A DNA stretch of 64,000 bases from positions 71,390 to 135,389 of the forward strand of contig JBDIVN010000006.1 in assembly GCA_039794365.1 (NCBI GenBank), in the 5' to 3' direction. This DNA comes from Vampirovibrionales bacterium (GTDB lineage Bacteria; Cyanobacteriota; Vampirovibrionia; Vampirovibrionales; Vampirovibrionaceae). The notes below the pieces were generated by a model. It was not told the origin of the DNA, did no database searches, and worked only from the letters and a program-made list of their open reading frames with translations. The position numbers and the translations under genes are program-made. Each line of letters begins with the position of its first letter. The stretch's first letter is position 1. Of the stretch, positions 7,291-57,805 are shown piece by piece.

Positions 7291-7479
7291 TTATGCCACC
7301 TCCACGGTAATCAGGTGGGAAATCCGGGTCACCATTCCCTTGATGGTGGGACTGTCGGCATGCTCGACCACGTCGTGCAGCTTTTTCAGTCCGAGGGCCC
7401 GGGCCACCTTGCGGTGCTTCTCCGGGCGTCCGATCAGGCTGCGGGTCAGCCTGATGCGGAGTTTTTTCTGTTGAGCCAT
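7291..7479 (-). CDS. rpmD: 50S ribosomal protein L30
   Basis: 62-aa ORF (…LRIRLTRS.IG…) lying between rpsE and rplO. Confidence 0.88.
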   Translation of the reverse strand: MAQQKKLRIRLTRSLIGRPEKHRKVARALGLKKLHDVVEHADSPTIKGMVTRISHLITVEVA

Positions 7480-12013: not shown

Positions 12014-12496
12014 ATGACCGAACTCATCTTCCAGCGTTCCAAGGAATTTCTCCCATACCCCTTGGAGATCCTGGTGGATGGGGAGGAAAGGGGACTGGTA
12101 AAGAATGGAAAAACCTTCCGGCTGACCCTGCAACCCGGGAACTATAATCTTCAACTTCGACAACGCGTCAACCTGTACAGTGAAGCATGGGAATTTCTGT
12201 TTCTGGGAAAACGGATCAGCCCCCCGCTGCCGGTCACAGTGAACGACAGAGAGGTCCAGCATTACCAATGCTGCGTGGCCGAAAAACCTTGGTTGGCTGG
12301 CCTTGTTGAAGCCGGGCCATTGATTCTCCCCTTGGGTTGGCTTCTTCTCTCTATGTTTATTTTCAACTTCCGTCTCCCTGTAGAGGGAGCTTTTTATCTG
12401 ATACTGGGCGCTTTTGCAGTTACGCGGTACAGCACTCGGTTTTCGTTTATCCGCCCCACCGTCACACCCATTCCTGAAGATCTGCTACGGCAGTGA
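12014..12496 (+). CDS. hypothetical membrane protein
   Basis: ATG at 12014 lies 15 bp after the XRE gene stop; two C-terminal hydrophobic segments; no recognisable family. Confidence 0.4.
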   Translation: MTELIFQRSKEFLPYPLEILVDGEERGLVKNGKTFRLTLQPGNYNLQLRQRVNLYSEAWEFLFLGKRISPPLPVTVNDREVQHYQCCVAEKPWLAGLVEAGPLILPLGWLLLSMFIFNFRLPVEGAFYLILGAFAVTRYSTRFSFIRPTVTPIPEDLLRQ

Positions 12497-12520
12497 ATCC
12501 TTCAACCACCAACTGCCAGA

Positions 12521-13846
12521 TTACGACATGGCTTGAACCGACTCGCCCATGCAGATTTCGTCGATGAGGAGCGGGGGGTCGACGGGGGTGTCGGAGAAGG
12601 TGATGGCCTCGTGCAGCAGATCCAGGGCATCCGCCTCGCCTTTGGGGCCGACATGGAGTTCTGCCAGCGTCTCGCCCGCCTCCACACAGTCGCCGACTTT
12701 TTTGTGCAGCACCACGCCCACGCCCAGATCAATGGGGTCCCCTTTTTTCGCCCGGCCTGCGCCCACAGCCTTCGCCGCCTGGGCGATTTTAAGGGAGTCA
12801 ATCCCGGCAATATAACCGGAGCGCGAGGCCGGAAACAGCCGGATTCGGGCGGGCTGGGGCAACTGGTTAAAGTCGGCGAGGGCTTCTATATCCCCACCCT
12901 GGGCGGCCACCAACTCCTGGAATCTGGAAAACGCCGATCCGTCCTCGATCCGGGCCATCAGCTCGGCCTCGGCATGCGTCGGATTCGGCGCCTTTCCGGC
13001 GCTGACCAGCGTAATGGCCCCCAACTGGACGCAAAGTGCCAGCAGGTCCTTCGGCCCTTCGCCCTTGAGGGTGTTCACCGTTTCCACAATTTCCACGGTA
13101 TGGCCGATGGCATAACCCAGAGGCTGGTTCATGGAGGAGATGACGGTGGAGATGGAGCGCCCAAGACGGCGACCCACCTCCCGGCAGGTCCGGGCCAGCT
13201 CGCGGGCCTCGTCCAGGGTTTTCATGAAGGCCCCCCGGCCAAACTTGATGTCCAGCACGATGACCTTTGCGCCGGAGGCCACCTTCTTGGAGACGACAGA
13301 AGCGGCAATCAGGGGAATGTTATCCACCGTGGCGGTCACGTCACGCAGGGCATACATTTTGCCGTCGGCGGGGGCCAGATCTGCCGTCTGGCTGGAGATG
13401 GCCAGCCCGATTTGATTGACCTGCCGGATAATCTCGTCGTTGCTCAGGGTCACACGGAAACCGGGGATGGCCTCCAGCTTGTCAATGGTCCCACCGGTAA
13501 AGCCCAGCCCCCGGCCTGAGAGCTTGGCCACCTTGACCCCGCAGGCCGCCAGCATGGGAGCCAGCACCAGGGTGGTCTTGTCGCCCACGCCGCCGGTGCT
13601 GTGCTTGTCCACCACGACGCCATCCACTTTGGAGAAGTCCAGCACCTCGCCGGATTCCACGAAATACTTCGTCAGCCAGGTGGTTTCATCCAGATTGAGG
13701 CCGTTGATGCAGGCCGCCATCAGCCAGGCGGAGATTTGATAATCTGCGGCCTGGCCGCTGACCATGCTTTCCACCAGGAACCGGATCTCTTCCTCGCCAT
13801 GCGTTTCGCCCCGGCGTTTTTTATCTATAATCTGGATGACGTTCAT
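12521..13846 (-). CDS. pdp: pyrimidine-nucleoside (thymidine) phosphorylase
   Basis: Glycosyltransferase family 3 motifs (…DKHSTGGVGDKT…) with the C-terminal PYNP domain. Confidence 0.88.
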   Translation of the reverse strand: MNVIQIIDKKRRGETHGEEEIRFLVESMVSGQAADYQISAWLMAACINGLNLDETTWLTKYFVESGEVLDFSKVDGVVVDKHSTGGVGDKTTLVLAPMLAACGVKVAKLSGRGLGFTGGTIDKLEAIPGFRVTLSNDEIIRQVNQIGLAISSQTADLAPADGKMYALRDVTATVDNIPLIAASVVSKKVASGAKVIVLDIKFGRGAFMKTLDEARELARTCREVGRRLGRSISTVISSMNQPLGYAIGHTVEIVETVNTLKGEGPKDLLALCVQLGAITLVSAGKAPNPTHAEAELMARIEDGSAFSRFQELVAAQGGDIEALADFNQLPQPARIRLFPASRSGYIAGIDSLKIAQAAKAVGAGRAKKGDPIDLGVGVVLHKKVGDCVEAGETLAELHVGPKGEADALDLLHEAITFSDTPVDPPLLIDEICMGESVQAMS

Positions 13847-30867: not shown

Positions 30868-31070
30868 GCGCGTTGGTCCCCTCTCTTCGAAAGAGCGCTC
30901 AGACTCGTTAATCTCTTCTCGACTTCCCTAGTGCGTGACGAATCGCGTGATCAAAAATCCTTCCGCATGCATGAAAACATGCTCTGCGATTTTGTTGCGC
31001 CCGTCACAACACCCTCGCCCCCGCAATCAATACGAGGGCGATGGCAAGGGATGAGATGGTTTTCAAACGG

Positions 31071-39147: not shown

Positions 39148-39603
39148 TCAGGCAGGCTCCAGGGACGACGTGCACATCTGGCAGCGCTTGGCCTGGACGG
39201 GGATGCTGGCCAGGCAGAAGGGGCATTCTTTGTTATCGGGCGGATCGTCGCGGCGCTCCGGGCTGAACTTGAGCCGGTTGATCTGTTTAATCAGCAGGAA
39301 AACGGCGAAGGCCACGATGATAAAATTGATAATGGTGCTGATAAAGGCGCCGTAGTTGATGGTAACAACCCCCGCCGCCTGGGCTGCGGCCAGTGACTCG
39401 TACTCGCCGCCTGAGAGGTTAATGTAGTAGTTGCTGAAATCCACCCGGCCCAACAGAATACCGAGGGGCGGCATGAGGATGTCGTTGACCAGCGAGGTGG
39501 TGATGCGGCCAAAGGCGCCACCAATGATGATCCCTACGGCCAGGTCAATGACGTTGCCGCGCAGGGCGAACTTCTTGAATTCCTGGAGCAGTCCCAACGC
39601 CAT
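39148..39603 (-). CDS. mscL: large-conductance mechanosensitive channel fused to a C-terminal Cys4 zinc ribbon
   Basis: MscL TM1/TM2 consensus (…[21 protein letters not shown]…) followed by CPFC…CQMC. Confidence 0.8.
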
Positions 39604-43170: not shown

Positions 43171-43548
43171 ATGCAACAATTCTCACAATCCACCCCCTTT
43201 TCCCTGCGGGCCGCCGCCCTGGGGCTGGTTCTTCTCAGCGGCTGCCAGGGGGTCATCACACCAAATGCGGAGGTCACCGGCAGCATGCTGGGATTCCAGA
43301 TCCGCAACCTGGACAATGCCCAGTGGCACGACTGCACCGTCATCCTGAACCGGGATGCCGGCGACGAGAACCGGTTTACCCACCACATCGGCAACGTGGA
43401 ACCCGGTGCCACGGAGCGAATCCTGGTGACGGCCTTTTCCAAGAAGAACGGCGAACGGTTCATCCCGGTCATTTCCAAGGCCAGAACCCTGGACATCCAG
43501 TGCCGGATGCCCTTCCTGCCCTACTCCATGGATCTGGACAAAAAATAA
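43171..43548 (+). CDS. small lipoprotein
   Basis: Signal peptide with lipobox LLSGC. Confidence 0.5.
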   Translation: MQQFSQSTPFSLRAAALGLVLLSGCQGVITPNAEVTGSMLGFQIRNLDNAQWHDCTVILNRDAGDENRFTHHIGNVEPGATERILVTAFSKKNGERFIPVISKARTLDIQCRMPFLPYSMDLDKK

Positions 43549-43601
43549 CCTGATTATCGGGAATCAACCCTAACGTATGTCATTCGCAGGGTATCCGCCC
43601 T

Positions 43602-43697
43602 CGCCCCTGTGTCATTCCCGCGAAGGCGGGAATCCATTGTGCCGACTCGTCGAAATGCTGAAATGGCTTCCCGCCTTCGCGGGAATGACACATGCGG
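43602..43697. repeat. pair of inverted dRS3-like palindromic repeats (GTCATTCCCGCGAAGGCGGGAATCCATT … CTTCCCGCCTTCGCGGGAATGACAC), MITE-like
   Basis: ATTCCC-N8-GGGAAT palindromes in opposite orientation about 40 bp apart; the same unit recurs at 46.13 kb and 57.58-57.80 kb. Confidence 0.8.
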
Positions 43698-43759
43698 GTA
43701 TAGCAAACAGGCATGGATACATTGCCTTATTCCCGATAATCAGGAAAAATAAAGCCGGC

Positions 43760-44011
43760 TTATACTGCGGCGCCAATCTTCTTCAGTTCGGCCAGAATTT
43801 CCTCATCGGTCTTCGCATTGACCGCAATCCGCTGAAAGGTTTTGGCGTCGACGCCCAGCCGGCTCAACAGGCCGCTGTCCATCGGGCAGGGGTACTCCAG
43901 ATCAAACGGCTCAATTTCACCGGCGGCTTCCAGACGGGCCTTGTCAATCATCCGGGCCAGCCACGGAATGCCGCCCACCGGGACGGAGCCGGAACGGGGT
44001 TCGTTTGCCAT
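43760..44011 (-). CDS. small hypothetical protein
   Basis: 83-aa ORF (…GIPWLARMIDKARL…); no family recognised. Confidence 0.45.
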   Translation of the reverse strand: MANEPRSGSVPVGGIPWLARMIDKARLEAAGEIEPFDLEYPCPMDSGLLSRLGVDAKTFQRIAVNAKTDEEILAELKKIGAAV

Positions 44012-44131
44012 CGGCAGTCTCCTTTTTCGAATCGCTTCCTACCCGGATCTTAACGAAAGGCCCCTCGAATGTCGAACCCCCTCCTGGTACAATAGGCCGT
44101 GTTTTCAGACTAACCCTGGAGTTTGCGCGTC

Positions 44132-44809
44132 ATGATGGGCCTGCAAGACCCTGCCGTTTCACAGTTCACCGAAAAGCAGGTGCTGGAGAAAACCCGGCTG
44201 GCCGCCGATACGGCCTGGCGGCTTCTGGAAGAGATTACGCTGCTACTGAAACCCGGCATCCGCGAATCCGGGGCGAAGGACCAGGCCTTGGCCCTGATGC
44301 GTGATCGCGGCGTCACGAAACACTGGCACCAGCCCTATATCCGTTTTGGCTCCCACAGCATCCTCACCTTTGCAGACAAGCCCGAAGACGACCGGGTTCT
44401 GGGCGAAGACGACATTGCCTACATCGATCTCGGCCCGGTGATTGATGCCGGCGGCCTCGACGTGGAAGGAGACGTGGGCCACACGGTGGTCTTCGGCGAC
44501 AACCTCCTGTTTCATGACCTCAAGGCCACCAGCGAACGGCTGTTTCATGAGGGGGTCGCCTACTGGAAAAACCACCGGCCCACCGGGGTGGAACTCTACG
44601 ACTATTTGAAGGCTGCCGCCAGCAGCGCCGGGTACGACTTTCACCTGAACCCCGCCGGACACCTCATCGGGACGTTTCCCCACAAGGGCTGGCGCAACGG
44701 CCTCAACACCTATCCCTACCCCCCGGAGCCGGGCATCTGGATTCTGGAAATTCAGATCCGCCACCCGGAGCAGCCCTACGGCGCTTTCTACGAAGCGGTT
44801 CTTCTCTGA
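44132..44809 (+). CDS. M24 (pita-bread fold) metallopeptidase-like protein
   Basis: D.G…D…H…E…E spacing reminiscent of methionine aminopeptidase/prolidase (IDLGPVIDAGGLDVEGD…, AGHLIGTFPH, ILEIQI); GGAG 10 nt before the ATG. Confidence 0.5.
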   Translation: MMGLQDPAVSQFTEKQVLEKTRLAADTAWRLLEEITLLLKPGIRESGAKDQALALMRDRGVTKHWHQPYIRFGSHSILTFADKPEDDRVLGEDDIAYIDLGPVIDAGGLDVEGDVGHTVVFGDNLLFHDLKATSERLFHEGVAYWKNHRPTGVELYDYLKAAASSAGYDFHLNPAGHLIGTFPHKGWRNGLNTYPYPPEPGIWILEIQIRHPEQPYGAFYEAVLL

Positions 44810-44911
44810 CCATGGTGGCGGCGGCGTTGTATACCGCCGCCATGCTGCCCGTCACATGATCCCAAAGCCTGCACCTTCCCCGAATTGTGAAACCGGGCCT
44901 ATAATGGGGCT

Positions 44912-46111
44912 ATGTTCAAGTTCATCAAGACCCGACTGACCCCCGGTGCCCGCGCCCTGAACGTGGCGCCTTTGTTCAGCGTGCCCCTGGACGAGTACAA
45001 GGCCACCGGGGAACGCGACGCCATTCTGGCCTCGTCCGGGATGGGTAAATCCTACCTGACCGGCGTCATCATGGAAGAGACGCTGGAAAGCGGCTGCAGC
45101 ATCTGCGTCATTGACCCGGAAGGGGAACACTTCACCCTGGCGGAACGCTACCCGATGATGATCATCGGCGGTGAACACGGCAACCTGCCCCTGGAAGAGG
45201 CGGCCATCGATCTTTTCATCGACGCCATGCTGAAAACCGGCTTCTCCGCCGTCTTCGATCTCTCGGAGTATCTGGATGACGAGCAGCAGCATCTGTACGG
45301 CGTCATTGCGGACAAGCTGTTCCAGGCCGAACAGAAGTACCGCCGCAAGATTCGCCTCATCGTGGAGGAGGCCCAGATCTACGCCCCCCAGAAAACCATG
45401 GGCGGAGCTGCGTCTTCGCGCAGCAAGACCAAGAAGATGGACCCGCTGCTGGCCAGCCAGAAGATCGCCAAGCGGGGCCGCAAGCGGGCCATTGACAGCC
45501 TGTGGGCCACCCAGCGTCCCGCCAGCATCAGCAAGGATATTCTCAGCCAGTGCAACCGGTTCTGGTTTGGGGGGATCACCTCCGAGCAGGATTACAAGGC
45601 CATTCGGCCCTTTCTTAACGAGGCGGGGATCTCCTTTGCGGAGATCAAGGCTCTGCACCCCGGCGAGTTCTACTTTTACAGCAAGGGGATGACCAAGAAG
45701 ATCAAGATCCGCAAGCGCCACTGCAAACACGCCGGGGCCACGCCGGAGGCGGGCATGAACTTTCACGCCACGGTGAACAGTTCCATGGAGAAAGCCATCG
45801 CCTCGCTGACCGAAGCCGTTGCCCAGCGGGCCGTCGAGAAGCAGAAGGAAGAATCGGAAATCGCCCTGCTCAAGGCCCAGATCCGCGAACTGAAGAAGGA
45901 CAACGAGAACCTGCGCAAGGAACTGGAGCAGGAGCAGCTGGCCACCAAGGTGATTGAGCGGCTGGAGAAATCGCCCACATCCAGCACGTCGTCCTCACGG
46001 CGTCCCCGCAAGCCGGGAGGACAGGACGATGCGGCCCTGCAGGCCAAAATCGCGGAAAAGATCGAGGAATCCAGCCGGCGGCTGCATCCGACGAAAATCA
46101 ATCTCGACTAG
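44912..46111 (+). CDS. HerA/FtsK-like (DUF87) P-loop ATPase with C-terminal coiled coil
   Basis: Walker A SSGMGKSY, Walker B …LIVEEAQ, conserved WATQRP motif; C-terminal heptad-rich KQKEESEIALLKAQIRELKK… and a Ser/Arg tail. Confidence 0.6.
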   Translation: MFKFIKTRLTPGARALNVAPLFSVPLDEYKATGERDAILASSGMGKSYLTGVIMEETLESGCSICVIDPEGEHFTLAERYPMMIIGGEHGNLPLEEAAIDLFIDAMLKTGFSAVFDLSEYLDDEQQHLYGVIADKLFQAEQKYRRKIRLIVEEAQIYAPQKTMGGAASSRSKTKKMDPLLASQKIAKRGRKRAIDSLWATQRPASISKDILSQCNRFWFGGITSEQDYKAIRPFLNEAGISFAEIKALHPGEFYFYSKGMTKKIKIRKRHCKHAGATPEAGMNFHATVNSSMEKAIASLTEAVAQRAVEKQKEESEIALLKAQIRELKKDNENLRKELEQEQLATKVIERLEKSPTSSTSSSRRPRKPGGQDDAALQAKIAEKIEESSRRLHPTKINLD

Positions 46112-46129
46112 GGTCAATCTCCGCTTAAT

Positions 46130-46165
46130 CCAGAATGGATTCCCGCTTTCGCGGGAATGACAGGC
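46130..46165. repeat. dRS3-like palindromic repeat copy (ATTCCCGCTTTCGCGGGAATGACA)
   Basis: Same ATTCCC-N8-GGGAAT unit as at 43.6 kb, lying immediately 3' of the HerA-like gene. Confidence 0.75.
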
Positions 46166-46169
46166 GGCT

Positions 46170-46439
46170 TTACGCGAAGATGGCGCCTGCCTCGTAGAGA
46201 TCCTGGCGCATCTCCAGGCGCTTCTGGGCGTCCTTGTCGTTCATCTGGTCCGCAATAGACACAATGTCATCCGCGCTCTGACTCTCCGAACGGGCGACAT
46301 CCAACAACTGGGCCATCAGGCCGGTGGCCGAGCCGTCGCTTCCGTAACTCTCCAGGCTTGCATTCGACGTTGATCCGTCGCGGCCCGGCCTCTTCTGCAT
46401 GGCCTGCACCATGCCCAGGGCACCAACACTGCCAAGCAT
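46170..46439 (-). CDS. small-protein family member A (C-terminal …LYEAGAIFA)
   Basis: ATG at 46439 preceded by a GGAGAGAGGAGAGAG purine tract; paralogous to the ORFs at 47014, 47596 and 48255. Confidence 0.5.
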   Translation of the reverse strand: MLGSVGALGMVQAMQKRPGRDGSTSNASLESYGSDGSATGLMAQLLDVARSESQSADDIVSIADQMNDKDAQKRLEMRQDLYEAGAIFA

Positions 46440-46687
46440 AAACGCTCTCTCCTCTCTCCGAACACTTCGTTTTTCGATCACAATCGCACACGGTTGCCGT
46501 ATAAAAATAAAAACGATTTTACGGTGCGGATTGCCCCGCCTCTCTCCAAAAGGCTTTGACGGGCTTTAGATTTTATTTATGCACCAGCGGCAAAAAAAAT
46601 GTTTTTATGCAAGCACAGGGAGCAACACACTCCTACAGAATCGGTATCAGGTACAGGCAGGGGATAACAGGAGGTTTGACAGCAAGT

Positions 46688-46900
46688 ATGGGTTTGGAAA
46701 TCGGACAAAAGATTCAGAATCCGCAGGTTCAGTTTGGCGGCGGTGAAAACGGCCAAGCTGGCGGAGCCAAGCAGGCGGGTGGCGCCGAGGGCGGTCCGAA
46801 GCCGCCGGAAGGCACCGGGTTCCCCGGGCTGGACAATCAGCAGGACGGCAAGAATCCGCAGCAGGCGCAAAAGCTGGAGATGAATTCCATCTTTTCATAG
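46688..46900 (+). CDS. small Gly/Gln-rich protein D (N-terminus resembles the Q/G-rich proteins; C-terminal …LEMNSIFS)
   Basis: AGGAGG 13 nt before the ATG; MGLEIGQKIQNPQVQFGGGENGQAGG… resembles MSLTIGFKPDQQQAQGQQGLGQAGQ of the 23899..25113 product. Confidence 0.4.
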   Translation: MGLEIGQKIQNPQVQFGGGENGQAGGAKQAGGAEGGPKPPEGTGFPGLDNQQDGKNPQQAQKLEMNSIFS

Positions 46901-47013
46901 TTTGAAATAAGGAGGTTAAGGACATCCACCCAGCCGGGTTTCGCCGGGCTGGATGGATGCATTGTCAGGAGATTCAGCAAGAGATAGCAAGAGAAAACAG
47001 TTAAAGCATTTTT

Positions 47014-47403
47014 TCAGGTTCCAAAAACGGCGCCCGCATCGAACAGCCCTTGGGACTGGGCGCGGCGGCGGCGTTTTTGCTCGTCTCGCGCCTGCATGCG
47101 CAGGTATTCGATCTCCTCGATGATCTTGCGTTGCTCGGCCCGGATCGCCAACTGGCGATCCAACTGGTTGACGGCCAGCATCTCGTTAAGGGACATGTCG
47201 GGCCTCACGCTGTTGGCCAGCGCAATGCGCTGATCGCTGTAATAAAAGCTGTCGCCGCTGCCGACGAGTTTGTCCAGGGCGCGTCCGCTCAGGTGCCGGT
47301 AGGCGCCGGGATTTCCAGCGACCTGGGCGGCCACGTCGGAAATGGGCCTGCCCAACGGGCGAAACACCGTATTCAGTGCCAGGGGGACACCGGACAGAGA
47401 CAT
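47014..47403 (-). CDS. small-protein family member B (C-terminal …LFDAGAVFGT)
   Basis: ATG at 47403 with GGAG 12 nt upstream; N-terminus MSLSGVPLAL…; basic Q/R-rich helix before the tail. Confidence 0.5.
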   Translation of the reverse strand: MSLSGVPLALNTVFRPLGRPISDVAAQVAGNPGAYRHLSGRALDKLVGSGDSFYYSDQRIALANSVRPDMSLNEMLAVNQLDRQLAIRAEQRKIIEEIEYLRMQARDEQKRRRRAQSQGLFDAGAVFGT

Positions 47404-47595
47404 TAGACACACACTCCGGGAAATTGCTCTTTCCAAACTGCTCTTCATGTTTATAAAAACATTAGAGCGTTCGAAATTGCCCGCCCGTTACAAAAGAAGC
47501 TTCTTAAAATTTGACCGGAACGCGGGGGGCCGCGCTCCGGTCATTCACTTCCCAACTTCCAAAAACGGATCTTTCCTCACTTTCCTCACTGAAAC

Positions 47596-47961
47596 CTAGT
47601 AGAAGACATGCCCCTGGGCGATGGCGTTCTCCTCGGAGATCCGGTCCTGTTCGCGCATCCGCTTGAAGCGGTCCAGTTGCACCTCCAGTTTCTCAATCTC
47701 GGCCATGATGGCTTTCAGAATATTGTTGAGCACCGCCAGTTGCGGGAAATAGCTGGACCAGTCGGACACCTGCCTTTTCTCCACCCGGCCCGTGAAATGG
47801 ACCGTATCGCGTGACACCATGAGATCGTTGCTGAGGCTGGCCGCCAACGCGGAGCGCTCGGAGAGCGCATTGTTGAATTGCGATTTCGCATCGCTCAGCG
47901 CGGCAATCGTTGCCAGTTCGCCAAAGAGGATTCCAATACTCACGACCTGTATCTCCCACAC
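47596..47961 (-). CDS. small-protein family member E (C-terminal …AIAQGHVFY)
   Basis: Start uncertain (GTG at 47961 or ATG at 47820); the C-terminal RMREQDR…AQGHVFY aligns with member B. Confidence 0.4.
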   Translation of the reverse strand: MWEIQVVSIGILFGELATIAALSDAKSQFNNALSERSALAASLSNDLMVSRDTVHFTGRVEKRQVSDWSSYFPQLAVLNNILKAIMAEIEKLEVQLDRFKRMREQDRISEENAIAQGHVFY

Positions 47962-48254
47962 AATAGACAGACGTACGGATTTGACTTGTTGAAACGTTAC
48001 GGGGGATCTTGTGCGCTACTTTCGCTTTCCTACCGGTTGCATAAAAACCTGCTTTTGATTTTTTGTGACAGCCTGTTTTGGCAGAGAACGGGGCGTTAGG
48101 CTAAAAACCTCTCCCCGAAAGCCTTTCCCATATTAACTTTTTTAATTTTTATAAGTCTTTTATATTTGCTACAGATGTACCAAATCTATCTTCAGGCGCT
48201 AAAAACCCGCTTGTTTTTCAAGGCGGGTCTGGTGGTATAACGAAAAACCTCGGC

Positions 48255-48560
48255 TTATGCAAAAACGGAGAGGCCGGAACTGATGGCCTGCTGGCGGCGA
48301 GCCGTCTCCTGCTTCTGCCGCTTTCGGGCCGCTTCGGCCATCAGCGAGTGGGCCTCGTACATGGAGGCGTTCAGGTTATTTTTCATCTCCAACTGGGTAT
48401 CCGCCTGGGCAATCTGCCCCAGAAAACGCGGATTGTTGTAGTTGGCGGCGGCACGATTCGCCAGCCCCATGCGGGCTTCGTTATTGCTCTGGATGCCGAA
48501 CGCGGCGTTGTTGGCGCCGTTAATGCCGCTCAGCCCTGAAAACAGCGTAATTGGTGACAT
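48255..48560 (-). CDS. small-protein family member C (C-terminal …ISSGLSVFA)
   Basis: ATG at 48560 with GAAGG upstream; N-terminus MSPITLFSGLSGINGANNAAFG; Asn/Ala-rich. Confidence 0.5.
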   Translation of the reverse strand: MSPITLFSGLSGINGANNAAFGIQSNNEARMGLANRAAANYNNPRFLGQIAQADTQLEMKNNLNASMYEAHSLMAEAARKRQKQETARRQQAISSGLSVFA

Positions 48561-48862
48561 AACAACCCACAGCCTTCTTTCATCTACTCGACGTCTTTAA
48601 GCATTAAACCCGTTTTTCCGATTTTGTTGCCACCTCAAAATGATTCATTTTGTATATACAGACAGCCACCAGCAAGAAATCCGCACGCTACAACTCATAC
48701 CCTGAGAGTGTTCCCAAGATCATAAAAGTTATTCGCTATGGTTTTTCAGAAACATATGCCATAGTGGTTAAAACAACCTCTCAGACTGAAGCGACCCGAT
48801 CCGCCGCCTCAGCGAGGCCATACACACCCACTCCCTGTTTCCAATTCAGGAGTTGTTTTGTC

Positions 48863-50338
48863 ATGACCAATTCTCCAAACCCATACCCCATTAGGCCGGA
48901 AATCGATCCACGGGCTGAATCCGCCTTACCGGTGATTCTGGAAGGAAGCGTCCGCAAACACGAAACCCTTCCGCCAGAAGGACGAAACCGGACGGGCGGA
49001 CTGCTGCAAGCCCTGCTCATGGAGGCCGCCAACATCAAGCAGGCGATCCGTCAGCAGAATGACCACCTGGGTGACGACCCGGATGCGTTCAAGACGTCCG
49101 GCCTGATCCAAATCCCCCGGTTTGAACCCCTGCCCGATGCCGCAGAACTCAACGCCGAACTGGATCGCCGTCAGCCGAACAGAAACACCGGGATGAAGGC
49201 GATTCACAATGCCGTCATCCAGAACGAAATCGAAAAGGAAAAAGCCCGCCGTCAGGCCATCCAGATGGAGGCCGTCGATCAACAGATGGCCCGCCTGGCC
49301 CGCGCCATCGTGGAAACGGCTGAAGCGCAGAAGATGCAGCAGGCCCGCAGCTTCCACCGCCAGCAGGCCACAGCCTTTGATACAATACCGGGAATCATCC
49401 CCGGCTCCCTGGCCCGCCACGGCATCGGCCAGACGAACATACGCCCTTTGATTGCCGAAAGCCTGCCGATTGTTCACGCCATCCCCGGCGCCCAAAAACC
49501 AATCAGCCGCGCCGACTACCTCCGCCAGCAAAACGCCCTCGCCATGGAACGCGCCCAACGCGATGCCCTGTACGCCCAGCAGCGCTATTATGAGGAACAG
49601 ACCCGCCAAGAGCGCGTCCGACGGAATGTGGAATACCAGCAGCGTTTGAGAACCGGAAATCAACAGCAGGCCTTGGCTCAGCCGGTAAAAGTTTTCCCCC
49701 AGGCTCAATCCTCCTCCCCAGTGCCTGGAAGTTATGCTGAGGCTCTTAAAACCCTTGATGCTCTAACTGATAAAATAGATCAGGTAATCGAGAGCCTTCT
49801 TGAAGCAATACCGTTGCCTCCTCAGCAGGCTTATCAAATGGTTCAGGCTGGTCATCTTAGTCAGGTACGAACAAAGCGCGTCTCCCTATGGTATAACTGG
49901 GGCGATATACTAAAGGCTCCCCACGTTACTGCGGGTAATGCAAAGACCATTCCCCTTTCAGCTTACGAAAACGCCGTGGATCTGGCGGAGGCTTTGGACA
50001 GAGTCTGCAATAATCTGGGTTCCAAGGCTCCTATTAATAACTGGATCCGTCCAGGTAATCGCCGCTACCACGGCCAGGGTCTGGCAGTGGATTTTGAAGG
50101 AACGAAGGCCTGGAAAGACGGTCCACTTTATACAGCATTGAGACGAACTCCCGAGATCAAACGTATAGGACAACCTGATAATAACTATCCAGGAATGCAT
50201 GCGGATATTGGCCCTAATGGATGGGTTCCTGGGCGGCAGTTTCTTTTCATTGATAACGGATACTATAAACCTGGACGTGACTATACCGTTCCGGTTTTTA
50301 CTGGGCCACAATCGGCTCGTTTAAGGCCAGGAACGTAA
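48863..50338 (+). CDS. polymorphic-toxin-like protein: coiled-coil N-terminal region plus low-GC C-terminal M15/LAS-type zinc peptidase domain
   Basis: CAGGAG 11 nt before the ATG at 48863. C-terminal …RYHGQGLAVDF…GMHADIGP matches the H..G.AVD / H.D signature of M15 D-Ala-D-Ala carboxypeptidase-like peptidases. GC drops from about 62% to about 47% at about 49.71 kb. Confidence 0.55.
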   Translation: MTNSPNPYPIRPEIDPRAESALPVILEGSVRKHETLPPEGRNRTGGLLQALLMEAANIKQAIRQQNDHLGDDPDAFKTSGLIQIPRFEPLPDAAELNAELDRRQPNRNTGMKAIHNAVIQNEIEKEKARRQAIQMEAVDQQMARLARAIVETAEAQKMQQARSFHRQQATAFDTIPGIIPGSLARHGIGQTNIRPLIAESLPIVHAIPGAQKPISRADYLRQQNALAMERAQRDALYAQQRYYEEQTRQERVRRNVEYQQRLRTGNQQQALAQPVKVFPQAQSSSPVPGSYAEALKTLDALTDKIDQVIESLLEAIPLPPQQAYQMVQAGHLSQVRTKRVSLWYNWGDILKAPHVTAGNAKTIPLSAYENAVDLAEALDRVCNNLGSKAPINNWIRPGNRRYHGQGLAVDFEGTKAWKDGPLYTALRRTPEIKRIGQPDNNYPGMHADIGPNGWVPGRQFLFIDNGYYKPGRDYTVPVFTGPQSARLRPGT

Positions 50339-50340
50339 AT

Positions 50341-50673
50341 CTAGTCATTAGCAATATAGCTCTGAACAATACTACTAACCTCATTTTTACAGAAGTCAGA
50401 ATGGAGGGAAATTTCACCATTGGCATCAAAGCATCTGTCAGAAACAGCTTTCGCTCTTTTACTCCACTGCATGTCTTGTCCGGAATTAACACCACACTTT
50501 TCAAGCGCTTTTCTCATATCAAAGAGTGAATCCGCTTGTTTTTGAATAGTTTCCTGTTGTTCAATACGGTCTCTATGTAACCGTTCAACTTCATTTCTAC
50601 CCGTCCAAATGGTAACTATCATGCCTACTAGAAGCGCAGCAATCATAATATTTTTGATCACTTGGAACCTCAT
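50341..50673 (-). CDS. low-GC small membrane-anchored Cys-containing protein (candidate immunity protein)
   Basis: 110 aa with an N-terminal TM segment (IMIAALLVGMIVTIW) and 3 Cys; about 40% GC; stop lies 3 nt from the toxin stop, convergent. Confidence 0.45.
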   Translation of the reverse strand: MRFQVIKNIMIAALLVGMIVTIWTGRNEVERLHRDRIEQQETIQKQADSLFDMRKALEKCGVNSGQDMQWSKRAKAVSDRCFDANGEISLHSDFCKNEVSSIVQSYIAND

Positions 50674-50746
50674 ACCCGCCGAGTAACAACTCTATTTACC
50701 CATTCTACTAAGTAATTAGCACCATACAAGGCATAAATATTCGGCT

Positions 50747-51628
50747 TTGCTCAATATGATCACCACTGATGAGCACCGGGAACTGACCGTGGGCCTCAAG
50801 GCGGAAGTCGCCAAAAACTGGCTGCTGAACGATGGCCGCTCACTCGAAGATGGCCGTTGGGAGTACCGGGGTCAGGCGATGGATAACATCGAAGACGCCC
50901 AGTTGCTTGCCTATGCCGACGTAAAGAACGTCGAAGACACTGGCCGTCATCTGACCTCGGCCCAGTTGCAGAAAGCAGCGCTGGATATCGCTATGGGCGC
51001 TTATAAACTCTGGATCGGCGACGATATCAACACCCTGCTCGATCCTGAAGCTAATCTGCTGGAGAAAACCTGGTCCGGCATCTCCCTGGCCTCCAACTTC
51101 ATCCCCGGCGCTGCCATAGGTAAGCTGGGGCTGAAGACAATCACGGCCTTTAGAAGACTCAGAGGCATCACCAAGGCCAGTGGCAAGATTCCGGCGAATA
51201 TAGCCCGAAGTCCTCGAGCCCTTCGGCAGCTTCAGCAGAAAATGAAGCTGACCGACGCTCAAATTGCCGCTTTCAAAAAAGATCCCACAAAATTCAGAAA
51301 CGGACGATTTGAGCACATCGAAGTCTACAAGGGACCGAAAGACACTGCAATTTTTCGGACTAAGATAAAATCCAATATTGCAGATGGCTCTCATACGGTT
51401 AGAGAGTACCTAGTAGATAAAAATGGAAAGCTCTTGTTTCAAGCGCATAAAACTCAACTGAGAAACGGCTCTTTTCGTCATTGGCGAATCGATCAAGAAG
51501 GACCTTTTTCGGAACTTTTTCAAAAAGCAGCTAGGCGTGGCCAAAAGGTAAAGCCACAAATTGATGGACCCTTCGAAGATGAATATTACAATACTTGGCA
51601 ACAAATATTAGACAAGGTAGGAGAATAA
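50747..51628 (+). CDS. orphan polymorphic-toxin C-terminal module (conserved pretoxin segment plus low-GC toxin tip)
   Basis: 293 aa. The first about 150 codons are at genome-like GC and the last about 140 at about 42% GC. No secretion domain; followed by a translationally coupled small gene. Confidence 0.45.
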   Translation: MLNMITTDEHRELTVGLKAEVAKNWLLNDGRSLEDGRWEYRGQAMDNIEDAQLLAYADVKNVEDTGRHLTSAQLQKAALDIAMGAYKLWIGDDINTLLDPEANLLEKTWSGISLASNFIPGAAIGKLGLKTITAFRRLRGITKASGKIPANIARSPRALRQLQQKMKLTDAQIAAFKKDPTKFRNGRFEHIEVYKGPKDTAIFRTKIKSNIADGSHTVREYLVDKNGKLLFQAHKTQLRNGSFRHWRIDQEGPFSELFQKAARRGQKVKPQIDGPFEDEYYNTWQQILDKVGE

Positions 51629-51629
51629 T

Positions 51630-52025
51630 ATGGAAACGGAAAAAGAGATTCTGGATTCATTGGTTGCTTTTAACCGGCCCTTAGAGGAATTGGTGCCTTT
51701 AGTATGGCCGCTTAAGTTTCGGTATTCCGCTCCCATTACCCACATTACCCGGCAGGATATTATTTCAGTGATGAATCGTTATCTGGCCGGAGAATTTGAC
51801 GGAGATACGCTGGAATTTTGGGCCGATCTCGTCTTTGATCGCCTCTTTTATGATGTACCGACCAGTGGCCCCCTCGAAATGGAAACAAACTATACAGATG
51901 CCATTGACAATGTGTTGGAAATTCTGACATATGAGCCTGAGCGGGGGCATCCACACACGCCGGAGTTTATCCGTCAGCTTATTGACGAACTGGAAAACGC
52001 CAAGCTTGACCCTGTGGAGGCTTGA
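51630..52025 (+). CDS. candidate immunity protein (acidic, 131 aa)
   Basis: ATG lies 1 nt after the stop of 50747..51628 (TAATATG); acidic with no TM; paralog at 52276..52692. Confidence 0.45.
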   Translation: METEKEILDSLVAFNRPLEELVPLVWPLKFRYSAPITHITRQDIISVMNRYLAGEFDGDTLEFWADLVFDRLFYDVPTSGPLEMETNYTDAIDNVLEILTYEPERGHPHTPEFIRQLIDELENAKLDPVEA

Positions 52026-52074
52026 TTCAATCTGCACATTTAAAAACCGAATAGAATAGGCAAGTATCAAGAGA

Positions 52075-52108
52075 GCGGCTGATGGAACCTTCCATCAGCC
52101 TTTTTTTA
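52075..52108 (+). terminator. rho-independent terminator
   Basis: GGCTGATGGA-ACCT-TCCATCAGCC stem-loop followed by T7. Confidence 0.7.
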
Positions 52109-52275
52109 GGTCCACCCATTCCTATGAGATTTTTGTTCCCCTTGTACAGGATATTTTGGTAAAATAGACAAAGAACCTTTCGAGGTTTTCTGATTAGGGA
52201 GAAGATTTAACGTTCAGTGGGTGAATACGGGATTATATTGGAGAATGCGAAGTCTCTAAGTGTAATCTCGAGAAT

Positions 52276-52692
52276 ATGGCGTGGTTAGAAAGGAGCCCGG
52301 TGGTGATCGCTGAAGACAAAATAAAGCCGGTGGTTCAGGCCTTTGTGAAACAGGGAGGGTATCCCTCTCCCGAGGATCGCAAAAATGTCTGGCAGTTTCA
52401 TGAGCGGAACTGTCCTGAACATGCCTTTGTCATCGCGACTCGAGCCGATGTGATTCGGGAAGCAGACCGGTTTCTGAATCAGGAAATCACCGGTGCAGAC
52501 CTGGCGGCATGGGCTGATGGCATTATTTTCCTGGCCGGTGGCGGCCTGGTTGAATATGACCCGGATTACCGGGACGAGATTGTCAACGCCCTGGAAGAAT
52601 TGGCAAGTGAAGAAGAAAACCTGACGCTTGAAGTCATAACGCGAGTCAAGAAGTCTTCCATAGAGAACGGTGAGATGAATTTCAGTTTTTAA
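52276..52692 (+). CDS. orphan immunity-like protein, paralog of 51630..52025
   Basis: Shared block YLAGEFDGDTLEFWADLVF vs FLNQEITGADLAAWADGIIF; its 3' flank and terminator are a diverged copy of 52035-52108. Confidence 0.45.
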   Translation: MAWLERSPVVIAEDKIKPVVQAFVKQGGYPSPEDRKNVWQFHERNCPEHAFVIATRADVIREADRFLNQEITGADLAAWADGIIFLAGGGLVEYDPDYRDEIVNALEELASEEENLTLEVITRVKKSSIENGEMNFSF

Positions 52693-55220: not shown

Positions 55221-55895
55221 ATGCAGCAATCACTGTTCGGCAGTGTCGTACTCAGCGGAGAGGACGAGGCCGCCCCAAAACTTTCCCCGCTGGCTTCGGC
55301 GATTGAAGACGCCGTTTTTACGGTCATCGACCTGGAAACCACCGGCCTCAACGCCCGAAAGAATGCCATCACGGAGATCGTGGCCATCCAGTACAAAAAC
55401 GGCGAGGAAATGGGCAAATACGCAACGCTGGTAAAACCCACCGAGCCGATTCCCCCTGAGGTCGAGGCCATTACCGGCATCAGCAACGACATGGTCGCCC
55501 AGGCCCCGGCCCTGGTCATGGCGCTCAGCGAACTCTGCGGTTTTGTCGGCACAAGCCCCCTGATCGTCGGACACAATGTAGCCTTCGATCTCAACTTTCT
55601 GCGGGAAAAGCTGGATACCAGCGGTCTTTCACCTTTTATCACCCGGTTTGATCCGGCGACGGCTTTTTGTACTAAAATATTGGCGCAGAAGGTCCTACCC
55701 GGCCTTCCCAGTTACGAGGGGATCGTCGTCGCCAACCAGTGCGGTGTCATCAATGACAACCCCCACCGGGCGGAGTACGACGTGCGCATGAGCGCCGGCA
55801 TATTATTCTCACTCATCCGGCGCCTCAGGGAGCGGCAACACCCGATCCAATCCGTTGAGGATCTGCTTTGCTATCAGGGGGCTATCTTGCTGTAA
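55221..55895 (+). CDS. DnaQ-like (DEDDh) 3'-5' exonuclease
   Basis: Exo I DLETTG, Exo II GHNVAFD, Exo III H..EYD motifs. Confidence 0.8.
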   Translation: MQQSLFGSVVLSGEDEAAPKLSPLASAIEDAVFTVIDLETTGLNARKNAITEIVAIQYKNGEEMGKYATLVKPTEPIPPEVEAITGISNDMVAQAPALVMALSELCGFVGTSPLIVGHNVAFDLNFLREKLDTSGLSPFITRFDPATAFCTKILAQKVLPGLPSYEGIVVANQCGVINDNPHRAEYDVRMSAGILFSLIRRLRERQHPIQSVEDLLCYQGAILL

Positions 55896-56047
55896 ACACA
55901 TCCACCGTGCCGTCGGCACGGCGACTGCCCCTGAAACAACCTGCCTTCGGCAAGCCCATCGATCTCAGACCTCCAGTAAATACACCTCAAAAGCCCGTTT
56001 CGCTGTTTCAGCGGCTCCGGGCTTTATTTTTTACGGGCATCCAGCGC

Positions 56048-56689
56048 ATGGAACACTGGCTGCCCCTCTCCATGACAACGTTTACGGTGATCGACCTGGA
56101 AACCACCGGCACCGACCCGGCCATGAACGAGATCATTGAAATCGGCGCCGTCAAGTTCCGCAATGGCCGGGAAACCGGGCGGTTTGAAACCCTGGTTCAG
56201 CCGGTTTCCGGCGGAATCCCCGCCAAAACCACGGAGATCACCGGCATCACCAATGCCATGCTCAAAGACGCGCCCGGTCCCATCGCCGCCCTGCATGAGC
56301 TGGCTGACTTCGTCGGGGAGCATCCCCTGCTGGTTGCCCACTCGGCGGACTTTGACCTGGGAACAATCCACCGGCAACTGGACCGCCTGGGACTGGATCA
56401 CCTCAAGGACCGTTTCGATCCGGGGCGGACCGTCTGCACCCTGCGCCTGGCGGAAGACCTGGTGCCGGAAGTCATTGAAAACATCCGCCAAGTACAAAAG
56501 GATCGCCCCGATTACCTGACCCTCGACGGCCTGCGCGACCACTACGGGCTGACTGAAGACACCCGCCACCGGGCCGACAGCGACGCCCGGCTCACGGCCC
56601 GGCTGCTTTACCGGCTGCTGAAAGAGAACCCCAGGCTGAAGACCCTGAGGGATCTTCAGAATTTCAGTTCCAGCGAAATGGGGCAGTGA
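56048..56689 (+). CDS. DnaQ-like (DEDDh) 3'-5' exonuclease, tandem paralog
   Basis: DLETTG…HSADFD…H.ADSD motifs; ATG at 56048. Confidence 0.75.
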   Translation: MEHWLPLSMTTFTVIDLETTGTDPAMNEIIEIGAVKFRNGRETGRFETLVQPVSGGIPAKTTEITGITNAMLKDAPGPIAALHELADFVGEHPLLVAHSADFDLGTIHRQLDRLGLDHLKDRFDPGRTVCTLRLAEDLVPEVIENIRQVQKDRPDYLTLDGLRDHYGLTEDTRHRADSDARLTARLLYRLLKENPRLKTLRDLQNFSSSEMGQ

Positions 56690-57574: not shown

Positions 57575-57805
57575 AAATGGATTCCGGCCTTCGCAGGAAT
57601 GACAATAAATCCCTGTTTTAGCTGAATAGGTCAATCGGCATTTAAGATAAACCAACCCGTGTCATTCCGGACGCTGATAGCCGTAAGCGAGGCCCAAAGC
57701 CGAGCTGTACGGTCTTCAGCGCTTCGCGAGGAACGAGCGTTAGCGATGCAAGGGATATGGGTGAGCCGGAATCCATTGACCGGGAATGCGGGAATGACAG
57801 CAGAA
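57575..57805. repeat. cluster of dRS3-like palindromic repeats / MITE-like element
   Basis: ATTCCGGCCTTCGCAGGAATGACA at 57580; GTCATTCCGGAC… … CGGGAATGCGGGAATGAC forming terminal inverted repeats about 145 bp apart (57656-57800). Confidence 0.7.

Follow-up and report, generated by a model that had tools for sequence, protein, structure and literature searches.

Short palindromic repeats on both sides of a gene block raise the question whether they are the borders of a mobile segment or insertions beside genes of long standing. The question is addressed here for a 64-kb stretch of DNA from a Vampirovibrionales bacterium (hereafter the window), in which repeats at 43.6 and 46.1 kb lie on either side of three genes. 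A preliminary description had taken these repeats for the ends of an inserted 2.5-kb segment with a HerA-like ATPase. Our analysis points to another explanation, in which hairpin-forming Ssn-related motifs (SRM) were probably inserted in intergenic spacers and flank an old, vertically inherited gene block by chance and not as island borders.

Repeat copies in the window

The 28-mer TGTCATTCCCGCGAARGCGGGAATCCAT occurs in the window at 43610-43637 (+), 43663-43690 (-) and 46135-46162 (-), with a degenerate copy at 57577-57604 (-), against a chance expectation of about 0-0.5 copies in shuffles. Its 24-mer core TCATTCCCGCGAAGGCGGGAATCC was found four times with up to three mismatches, at 43612-35 (+), 43665-88 (-), 46137-60 (-) and 57579-602 (-), and not once in 100 dinucleotide shuffles; the units that the preliminary description had noticed at 43.6 and 46.1 kb are thus real and non-random. 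The pattern ATTCCC-N8-GGGAAT, which defines the dRS3 repeat of Neisseria, has four matches in the window with at most one mismatch (0.26 expected). Two of these are exact (43614-33 and 46139-58) and one has a single mismatch (43667-86), and the match at 7334 looks like a chance occurrence. All copies are intergenic and they are enriched within the 64 kb.

In copy 1, TGTCATTCCCGCGAAGGCGGGAATCCAT, a stem of 8 bp closes a GAAG loop. Copy 2 carries one mismatch (GGGAAG) and stands inverted to copy 1, so that the two form a +/- doublet with arms of 31 nt each (43608-38 and 43662-92), 97% complementary and spaced by 23 nt. The ORF at 43577-44053 translates through this pair as ...SREGGNP...PAFAGMT..., which bears out the suspicion that the repeat itself produces this ORF. 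Copy 3 has a GAAA loop and lies in the 58-bp spacer that separates the convergent DUF87 gene and a gene for a 103-aa small protein. Folded as DNA, copies 1, 2 and 3 give hairpins of -8.9 (z = -4.05), -8.4 and -9.5 kcal/mol, all with z about -4. Copy 4 has two mismatches that weaken the stem, and its hairpin is weak (-3.9 kcal/mol, z = -1.35).

The site at 57.6 kb had been described as a cluster of the repeat. Repeat sequence is indeed present there, reaching 57799, but it amounts to one degenerate full copy (copy 4), one split copy and one half-site. The split copy (57660-57799, +) consists of TGTCATTCCGG (57660-70/71), an insert of about 94 nt that is unique among the DNA compared, and CCGGAATCCATT (57766-78), and is followed by the reverse half-site GCGGGAATGACA at 57788-99. 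Together with copy 4 these pieces make an imperfect long palindrome (fold z = -3.2). A second SRM variant, GCGAGGAACGAGCG, was also considered for the 94-nt loop insert and found no support in any locus; the insert and the spacers are alike unique.

Identity of the repeat

Chenal et al. have described SRM as single-stranded DNA (ssDNA) hairpins that are bound and cut by small GIY-YIG nucleases named Ssn (Nat Commun 2025, PMC11893778). Ssn is a single-domain GIY-YIG nuclease of about 95 aa (cd10448) that cuts a few nucleotides 5' of the hairpin; cleavage is confined to the hairpin strand, and neither double-stranded DNA nor RNA is cut. In the systems studied, the hairpin forms in DNA that becomes single-stranded in replication, repair, uptake or conjugation. 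The same authors have shown that cleavage requires the 5' GTC and that binding requires the C following the palindrome (Chenal et al., 2025). The window repeat is a directional element of 28 nt in which TGTC and CCAT flank, 5' and 3' respectively, an 8-bp stem (ATTCCCGC/GCGGGAAT) with a 4-nt loop. Both the 5' GTC and the C immediately 3' of the palindrome are kept in all four copies, and the palindrome ATTCCCGCG-N-GCGGGAAT is common to the window repeats and the NTS/SRM-Ssn system. The published SRM pattern, HGTCWYN(0-2)YYVSBRHN(0-5)WNVSBRGN(0-2)RNCYNB (Chenal et al., 2025), fits copies 1, 2 and 3, compared with a mean of 0.51 and a maximum of 3 matches in 100 first-order Markov simulations; copy 4 fails the strict pattern.

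Against the Neisseria NTS, CGTCATTCCCGCGMAVGCGGGAATCYRG, the window repeat is identical at 26 of 28 positions, the best copies differing at the first and last bases (T for C at position 1 and T for G at position 28). NTS sensu stricto is CGTCATTCCCGCGMAVGCGGGAATCYRG with at most one mismatch (Chenal et al., 2025). The exact NTS sequence is absent from the window and its copies, with two mismatches, therefore fall outside that definition and qualify as SRM only. The repeats are Ssn-related motifs, a family first met in Neisseria as dRS3/NTS, and an ordinary further instance of a known repeat class; they share with other SRM the hairpin and the extragenic position, and are present in several copies within the 64 kb. 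The earlier comparison with dRS3 was apt, since a nearly full 28-nt NTS contains the dRS3 core, and the literature now understands the dRS3 definition to mask the longer NTS. The host here belongs to the Vampirovibrionales (Melainabacteria), on which the main text of Chenal et al. (PMC11893778) is silent.

Occurrence in other genomes and GIY-YIG neighbours

At least 119 genome tiles, spread over more than 20 phyla, carry the exact 28-mer; among them are Chloroflexota, Planctomycetota, Nitrospirota, CPR groups, Rickettsia and two other Vampirovibrionales MAGs. Across these tiles conservation is limited to the 28-mer, and the flanks are random. A small GIY-YIG ORF (about 95 aa) adjoins the exact 28-mer in six of the tiles. 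The Pfam scan covered five of these ORFs (98-142 aa; L020, L059, L110, L118 and L127), which match PF01541; L084 has a truncated GIY-YIG-like ORF. In L020 the 28-mer lies on both sides of the GIY-YIG ORF, which is the NTS-ssn-NTS arrangement.

No ssn or GIY-YIG ORF was detected in the 64 kb of the window or in about 204 kb of Vampirovibrionales DNA. The window search, with approximate GIY-YIG sequences and with an HMM derived from five Ssn ORFs that adjoin repeats, gave no hit better than E = 3. A profile search with the Ssn alignment in a set of 5.8 billion proteins gave at least 8000 matches, and none of the 120 that were listed bore a Vampirovibrionales label. By analogy with Neisseria, this genome may encode a cognate Ssn that acts on the copies and thereby changes recombination of ssDNA locally. 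In a Logan assembly of the same strain, the sequence stops in the SRM at 46.1 kb and, at the other end, just right of the doublet at 43.6 kb, inside the 196-bp palindrome described below; such breaks would follow from multiple copies of the motif in the genome. An exact look-up of the DUF87 protein gave a 2.4-kb Logan contig.

An unlikely alternative is that the hairpins act mainly as RNA, as REP-like stabilisers of 3' ends or as terminators, and that the likeness to Ssn targets is incidental in this host. The stems are strong, and the copies at 43.6 and 46.1 kb lie just past the stop codons of convergent genes, a placement at gene 3' ends that is also seen for the doublets in L121 and L039. 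However, the repeats are followed by no U-tract, and a terminator scan did not call them as intrinsic terminators. A scan of the window at Rfam gathering thresholds gave a tRNA-Leu only, and the repeats fell under no RNA family. The 28-mer is identical in more than 20 phyla with the unpaired TGTC and CCAT included, which points to a site recognized by a protein and not to a generic RNA hairpin. In addition, SsnA does not bind RNA (PMC11893778), and the same junctions in relatives function without a hairpin.

Genes between the repeats

The preliminary description had correctly called three genes between the repeats, a small protein, an M24-like protein and a DUF87 ATPase. The small protein (43760-44011, -) is a DUF5069 protein (Pfam PF16798, E = 3.7e-17), ancestrally located beside the sdh operon, with orthologues at the same place in the related loci L132, L135 and L130. 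The second gene (44123-44809, +) encodes a protein with the M24 (creatinase/aminopeptidase-like) fold (PF00557, E = 2.5e-11); the gene call in L001 has 225 aa, and the ATG at 44132 is the likelier start. Its orthologue is 52% identical in L132 and absent from L135. The third gene (44912-46111, +) encodes the DUF87 ATPase of 399 aa.

Comparison with relatives argues that the repeats, and not the genes, are the insertions. GCA_019751815.1 (locus L132) is collinear with the window over 37.8-58.5 kb and keeps the order sdhBA-DUF5069-M24-DUF87 without any repeat. L135 shares sdhBAC-DUF5069-DUF87 with the window and likewise has no repeats there, and SRM were found at none of eight relatives' loci (about 118 kb). 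The junction of the DUF87 and small-protein genes is 2 bp long in L132, against 58 bp in the window, so that the repeat is the inserted piece. At 43.6 kb the corresponding junction measures 166 bp in L132 and 216 bp in L135. The window exceeds it by about 600 bp, made up of the SRM palindrome and a 125-aa ORF (43171-43548, +) that is specific to this window; the ORF is predicted to encode a lipoprotein (LLSGC lipobox), has no Pfam match and has no homologue in L132 or L135.

The ATPase has an HerA/FtsK-type core (Pfam DUF87) with a Walker A motif GMGKS (residues 43-47), a Walker B motif VEEAQ (about 151-155) and a long C-terminal coiled-coil helix (290-352). Only two short strands precede Walker A, in place of an N-terminal HAS barrel. 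The best Foldseek matches were 8xau, 9x1m and 4d2i (E about 1e-12), at 13-19% sequence identity. The RecA-like core fold is shared with HerA of the HerA-NurA, HerA-Sir2 (Nezha) and HerA-DUF4297 systems, whereas HerA measures about 500-650 aa and the window protein is shorter, lacks the barrel and ends in a coiled coil. NCBIfam HerA models scored 18-48 bits against cut-offs of 800-970, with HerA_antiphage at 48 against 800. PADLOC gave weak, partial matches to HerA and mad8, the HerA models being covered in their C-terminal part only. The label HerA-like therefore stands for the core fold and fails for a defence HerA, which, judged from its sequence, the ATPase is not recognizably. It was rightly described as lacking a known partner: NurA, Sir2 and DUF4297 are absent beside the gene, whose neighbours are the DUF5069, M24-like and small coiled-coil proteins. 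Across the eight loci of relatives its neighbours vary, and none of them is a nuclease or Sir2. Identity is 56-78% among the 120 best matches, and the organism labels given among these are all Vampirovibrionales, Melainabacteria or Cyanobacteria; within one order the ATPase is conserved, and its inheritance is apparently vertical.

These results bear directly on the idea that the repeats are att-like or recombination borders of a 2.5-kb mobile or accessory segment with a HerA-type defence ATPase. The repeats do lie on both sides of the segment, the ATPase has the fold and the weak PADLOC matches just mentioned, and the set of genes varies on the right-hand side of the repeat at 46.1 kb. Yet the repeat-free L132 and L135 have the block in collinear arrangement with the sdh operon, the 120 best homologues of the ATPase carry, where labelled, names of its own lineage, the antiphage HerA score is far under its cut-off, and the 2-bp junction in L132 makes the repeat the inserted piece. 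The GC content of the 43.7-46.1 kb segment is not anomalous, and no integrase, transposase or defence partner gene was seen among the scanned ORFs beside the repeats. The idea is extremely improbable; conservation of the segment in relatives with no insertion signature is what the preliminary description had itself named as refuting an island. DUF5069, the M24-like gene and DUF87 are long-standing, vertically inherited chromosomal genes and not a mobile or defence island. In the explanation preferred here, SRM would have been inserted as single copies or +/- doublets into intergenic spacers of a Vampirovibrionales chromosome, mostly between convergent gene ends, and would happen to sit on both sides of an inherited block adjoining the sdh operon.

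A variable region next to copy 3

The preliminary description had placed the start of an accessory region immediately after the repeat at 46.1 kb, and gene content does differ from that of relatives from there on (46170-52692). The region opens with four small paralogues that share a G-x-[IV]-F ending (46170-46481, 47014-47448, 47596-47961 and 48255-48560). Next come ORFs of 562, 110 and 293 aa, the last accompanied by two paralogous ORFs (131 and 138 aa). GC content is 46-50% across 50-52 kb, compared with 58.6% for the window; the genome had been put at about 62%, a value that the window does not reach. At the same region L132 has two small members only of the G-x-[IV]-F family. The small proteins and the 562-, 293-, 131- and 138-aa ORFs gave nothing above the curated cut-offs in PADLOC, Pfam and NCBIfam. 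At the position of the 57.6-kb cluster L132 has a histidine-kinase gene, and a search for a remnant of this gene at the cluster found none.

Neisseria dRS3 repeats, known together with NIMEs and the integration of Nf/MDA filamentous prophages, are likewise found near genes that vary between genomes, and two window copies match their 20-bp core exactly. It might be proposed on this basis that the repeats serve as integration targets for filamentous prophages or elements with an IS110/Piv-type recombinase; dRS3 is a phage recombinase target in the literature, and one copy carries the insert of about 94 nt in its loop. However, no recombinase, transposase or phage gene lies next to any copy among the scanned ORFs, recombinase and transposase domains were not found in the ORFs flanking the copies or in 46.2-52.7 kb, and the RS-flanked mosaic arrays of Neisseria are missing here. 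The 94-nt insert is unique and far too short for an element, and the variable region opens with an ancestral small-protein family and not with a prophage. Integration at these sites, which the preliminary description had noted for phages and islands at dRS3 in Neisseria, is very improbable, the block between them being syntenic in relatives.

The composite palindrome and possible mobility of the repeats

The doublet at 43.6 kb is enclosed in a composite palindrome of 196 bp (43549-43744; RNA fold -107 kcal/mol, z = -10.7), which is placed after the stop codons of two genes that converge on it. It ends in perfect 16-bp inverted arms, CCTGATTATCGGGAAT (43549-64 and 43729-44; confirmed by blastn), and contains an extra half-site, TGTCATTCGCAGGG, at 43578. 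The 8-bp sequence AAAAATAA directly abuts it on both sides as a direct repeat (43541-48 and 43745-52). The arms and flanks hint that this copy, at least, came within a MITE-like unit. Spread inside MITE-like units is a mode that the Ssn literature has not shown.

These features bear on whether the repeats are selfish, non-autonomous REPIN- or MITE-like elements that spread as doublets or composite palindromes, have no host function and cause local indels. The mobilising enzyme could be a RAYT/IS200-IS605-type transposase or Ssn itself. Adjacent SRM pairs across phyla are mostly +/- (49 pairs, against 10 -/+ and 3 same-strand), as in REPINs, and all three SRM sites of the window coincide with differences from L132, namely an extra ORF, a variable-copy family and a missing histidine kinase. 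Chenal et al. have themselves likened NTS-ssnA-NTS to an IS (PMC11893778). Against this, doublet spacers and flanks are unrelated in four Vampirovibrionales loci, which have in common only the 28-31-nt units, so that a conserved MITE body was rejected. A further copy of the 16-bp arm was not found in the DNA compared, and the A-rich flanking octamer may be accidental. A transposase was not seen, and Ssn is not known to carry out transposition. Selfish spread is possible though doubtful, and it is compatible with SRM insertion beside an inherited block and not exclusive of it.

The likeness to REP/BIME and REPIN-RAYT systems is considerable. These are also short extragenic palindromes, often inverted doublets with long hairpins at gene 3' ends, and are tied to a single-copy nuclease gene which the repeats flank. 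The enzyme is RAYT, an IS200/IS605-like HUH Y1 transposase, where that of SRM is a GIY-YIG nuclease, and no Y1 RAYT gene was noticed among the scanned ORFs, which are part of those in the window. REPs are lineage-specific, whereas the window 28-mer is identical across phyla. REPs also typically carry a 5' GT[AG]G tetranucleotide, which is missing from the window repeat.

Implications

Overall, a false lead is closed, as SRM on both sides do not make a gene block an island. For annotation, ORFs with PAFAGMT/SREGGNP are translated SRM and are to be masked. The exact NTS-type 28-mer is now documented in Vampirovibrionales, a lineage whose known genomes are nearly all metagenome-assembled. Its typical unit, in this lineage as across phyla, is a +/- doublet at the 3' ends of genes. 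If this genome encodes an Ssn, the lineage would offer a further natural Ssn/SRM pair, in which the mobility of the system could be examined. A wider reading, which we regard as rather unlikely, is that mobile SRM doublets or composite palindromes such as the 196-bp unit remodel Vampirovibrionales genomes, and that an NTS-genes-NTS arrangement shields DUF5069-M24-DUF87 from incoming ssDNA. SRM insertion or Ssn-dependent ssDNA cleavage would then have caused the gains and losses at the three sites relative to GCA_019751815.1. If this were true, it would be direct evidence of Ssn/SRM as a mobile element system, and the control of transformation known from Neisseria would extend to a predatory, non-photosynthetic cyanobacterial lineage.

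Identity of the Repeats

The 24-nt core TCATTCCCGCGAAGGCGGGAATCC was matched four times in the window with at most three mismatches, at 43612-35 (+), 43665-88 (-), 46137-60 (-) and 57579-602 (-), and was not matched in any of 100 dinucleotide-preserving shuffles, which confirms the repeat where a preliminary description of the sequence had placed it. The dRS3 definition, ATTCCC-N8-GGGAAT, gave four window matches with at most one mismatch where 0.26 would be expected; of these, the one at 7334 is apparently fortuitous. At 43.6 kb the pair consists of arms of 31 nt each, 97% complementary and spaced by 23 nt. The 158-aa ORF at 43577, dismissed as spurious in the preliminary description, is indeed translated repeat, since its SREGGNP and PAFAGMT segments read through the two arms. 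The cluster proposed at 57.6 kb contains repeat material but is looser than described, with one degenerate full copy (57577-604), a split copy with a unique insert of about 94 nt between its halves, TGTCATTCCGG and CCGGAATCCATT, and a half-site in reverse (57788-99). The GC content of the window is 58.6%, not the approximately 62% quoted for the genome.

Chenal et al. (2025; PMC11893778) have reported that about half of the Neisseria dRS3 copies are a 28-nt directional element, NTS (CGTCATTCCCGCGMAVGCGGGAATCYRG), and that NTS-like "Ssn-related motifs" (SRM) are known from many phyla. Small single-domain GIY-YIG nucleases (Ssn, cd10448) bind and cleave ssDNA at SRMs, and their genes frequently have SRMs on their flanks (PMC11893778). 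For cleavage the 5' GTC of NTS is important, and for binding the C immediately after the palindrome, on its 3' side, is critical (PMC11893778). The window consensus TGTCATTCCCGCGAARGCGGGAATCCAT is identical to NTS at 26 of 28 positions and retains both features. Three window copies match the degenerate SRM pattern of the same study, against 0.5 expected, and as ssDNA each is predicted to form a hairpin with an 8-bp stem and a 4-nt loop (-8.4 to -9.5 kcal/mol); the degraded 57.6-kb copy is predicted at -3.9 kcal/mol. No Rfam family covers the repeat, and its hairpins were not called in a scan for intrinsic terminators. The likeness to dRS3 noticed at the outset was therefore right and can be narrowed to SRM/NTS. 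The window repeats are a new instance of the repeat class described in 2025; the main text of PMC11893778 makes no mention of the Vampirovibrionales lineage.

Distribution and Association with GIY-YIG Genes

The exact 28-mer, scanned in one genome per species, was present in at least 119 genome tiles. The matches listed include Chloroflexota, Planctomycetota, Nitrospirota, Omnitrophota, Ignavibacteriota, Armatimonadota, Atribacterota, several CPR groups, Rickettsia, many Pseudomonadota and two other Vampirovibrionales MAGs (CAZXUP01 and JAHQWC01). Across 131 copies among these matches, conservation is confined to the 28-mer, with random bases on either side. Adjacent copies at most 150 nt apart, among the matches listed, form 49 +/- pairs, 10 -/+ pairs and three same-strand pairs; because the +/- orientation dominates, the 43.6-kb doublet has the usual arrangement. 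In at least six tiles the repeat adjoins an ORF of about 95 aa, and five full-length ones pass the Pfam GIY-YIG threshold. These GIY-YIG ORFs, from different phyla, are 50–60% identical to a reference ORF at locus L020, which has the repeat on both sides. The published NTS-ssn-NTS association is thus reproduced with the exact window 28-mer.

Eight IMG/VR viral contigs also contain the exact 28-mer, one copy each, and none of them has a GIY-YIG ORF within the stretch examined. A 2444-bp Logan contig (SRR28812184), assembled independently from the same strain, equals window 43719-46162; its left end falls within a 196-bp palindrome, immediately to the right of the 43.6-kb doublet, and its right end in the 46.1-kb SRM. 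Many Ssn homologues among the matches listed from the protein database lie on contigs of only 0.5–2 kb. Short-read assemblies appear to be fragmented by SRMs.

The Bracketed Genes in Related Genomes

The repeats at 43.6 and 46.1 kb bracket genes for a DUF5069 protein (43760-44011, -), an M24-like protein (44123-44809, +) and a DUF87 ATPase (44912-46111, +), and had been read as borders of a segment bringing in a HerA defense gene. Synteny refutes this reading. DUF87 neighborhoods were read in eight relatives (about 118 kb of loci), and no SRM was found there even at up to six mismatches; besides L132 and L135, described next, the SRM-free relatives include GCA_029866025.1. In the relative L132 (GCA_019751815.1), collinearity with the window extends over 37.8-58.5 kb, in the order adenosine deaminase, sdhB, sdhA, sdhC-like, DUF5069, M24, DUF87 and small proteins, followed by RNase III, CdsA, RRF, RNase T, Xth and response regulator, so that the block is kept in order beside the sdh genes. 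The sdhBAC-DUF5069-DUF87 arrangement is also common to the window and L135 (GCA_006844805.1), which is without M24. The DUF87/small-protein junction of L132 measures 2 bp and its sdhC-like/DUF5069 junction 166 bp. Because relatives are collinear without SRMs and these junctions are short, DUF5069, M24 and DUF87 are ancestral and the repeats are the added part. The GC content of the bracketed segment is unremarkable.

The DUF87 protein (Pfam DUF87, E = 4.5e-13) has 284 homologues at E ≤ 0.001. The best 120 of these are 56–78% identical to it, the self-match excepted, and their organism labels are all Vampirovibrionales, Melainabacteria or Cyanobacteria, the rest carrying no name or a generic one. 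An AlphaFold model (39 homologues as input, pLDDT 79.6) combines a RecA-like core with a long helix at the C-terminus (residues 290-352). Since only two short strands precede Walker A (residues 43-47) in this model, there is no room for a HAS barrel. The best Foldseek matches in the PDB are HerA chains (E ~1e-12, 13–19% identity), and the modeled protein is HerA-like in fold. That part of the earlier assignment stands, but a defense HerA is not recovered: NCBIfam HerA models score 18–48 bits against cut-offs of 800–970, and a search of the PADLOC set gave only partial HerA matches and a 51-bit match to the "mad8" model (314 residues). The protein represents a conserved, partner-less, order-specific family and is no recognizable defense or NurA-type HerA.

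Just downstream of DUF87 and on the opposite strand, three genomes encode weakly related coiled-coil proteins of 100–144 aa ending in [DA]-[AG]-G-x-[ILV]-[FY]. These are at 46170-46481, 47014-47448, 47596-47961 and 48255-48560 in the window, 11245-11547 and 11852-12166 in L132, and 12246-12596 in a further relative, L130. The members scanned had no Pfam, NCBIfam or PADLOC match. The ATPase may work together with these small G-x-[IV]-F proteins.

Gene-Content Differences and Other Repeats

Between the window and L132, three of five differing junctions carry SRMs and none of about nine conserved junctions does (P ~0.03, a rough hypergeometric estimate of our own rather than one computed by a tool). 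At the doublet the window has an extra 125-aa predicted lipoprotein ORF; the second SRM site adjoins the G-x-[IV]-F family, which numbers four members in the window against two in L132 and a single one in L130; at the third, L132 has a histidine-kinase gene. The differences without SRMs are MscL (39148-39603) and a second RNase T-family exonuclease, an RNase T paralogue (55868-56689), both present in the window and absent from L132. With one comparator and three sites, the coincidence of SRMs with gene-content differences is only suggestive. It agrees with a published link between dRS3/NTS and variable genes.

A low-GC stretch (46–50%) at 48650-52692 is missing from the collinear L132. It contains a 562-aa ORF, a 110-aa membrane-like ORF and a 293-aa ORF followed by paralogous 131- and 138-aa ORFs, each paralogue followed by a 33-nt direct repeat (52039, 52688). 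The layout of the last three ORFs is toxin/immunity-like; the ORFs of the stretch had no domain matches. A 30-nt motif, GCATnAAAAC...GATTTTnTTGC, has copies at 23779-23808, 30969-30998, 48039-48068 and 48601-48630 (67–73% identity to the reference copy). Two lie upstream of variable-region genes, and the motif may serve as a promoter or operator. Around 22400-25100, two adjacent minus-strand ORFs of about 405 aa (22439-23662 and 23899-25113) have internal 21-nt-periodic repeats (CTGGCCGG.CTGCT..) and 49–52-nt stretches in common at 77–80% identity, and are apparently repeat-rich paralogues arranged in tandem.

Placement, Spread and Proposed Function

Every SRM copy in the window falls in a spacer between genes. 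Two convergent genes end on either side of the 43.6-kb doublet, which is placed between their stop codons and within the 196-bp palindrome (43549-43744); the 46.1-kb copy is located between the convergent DUF87 and 103-aa genes, and the 57.6-kb cluster between xth and the response regulator. Doublets at two other repeat-bearing loci, L121 and L039, are likewise at gene 3' ends. At its ends the palindrome carries perfectly matched inverted arms of 16 bp, CCTGATTATCGGGAAT, and the octamer AAAAATAA directly abuts it on either side (43541-43752). Together these look like terminal inverted repeats with a target-site duplication; the octamer may be on both flanks by chance because the flanks are A-rich. 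No further copy of the arm was found in the DNA compared. A REPIN- or MITE-like mode of spread would fit this combination of terminal arms with repeats on the flanks, as well as the +/- bias among adjacent SRMs, but four Vampirovibrionales doublets have nothing in common beyond the 28–31-nt units.

Neither the window nor 204 kb of Vampirovibrionales DNA yielded a GIY-YIG ORF. The best-supported reading is that the window repeats are putative Ssn target hairpins, added to the spacers of a chromosome region that is otherwise conserved, and that they would act while the DNA is single-stranded.
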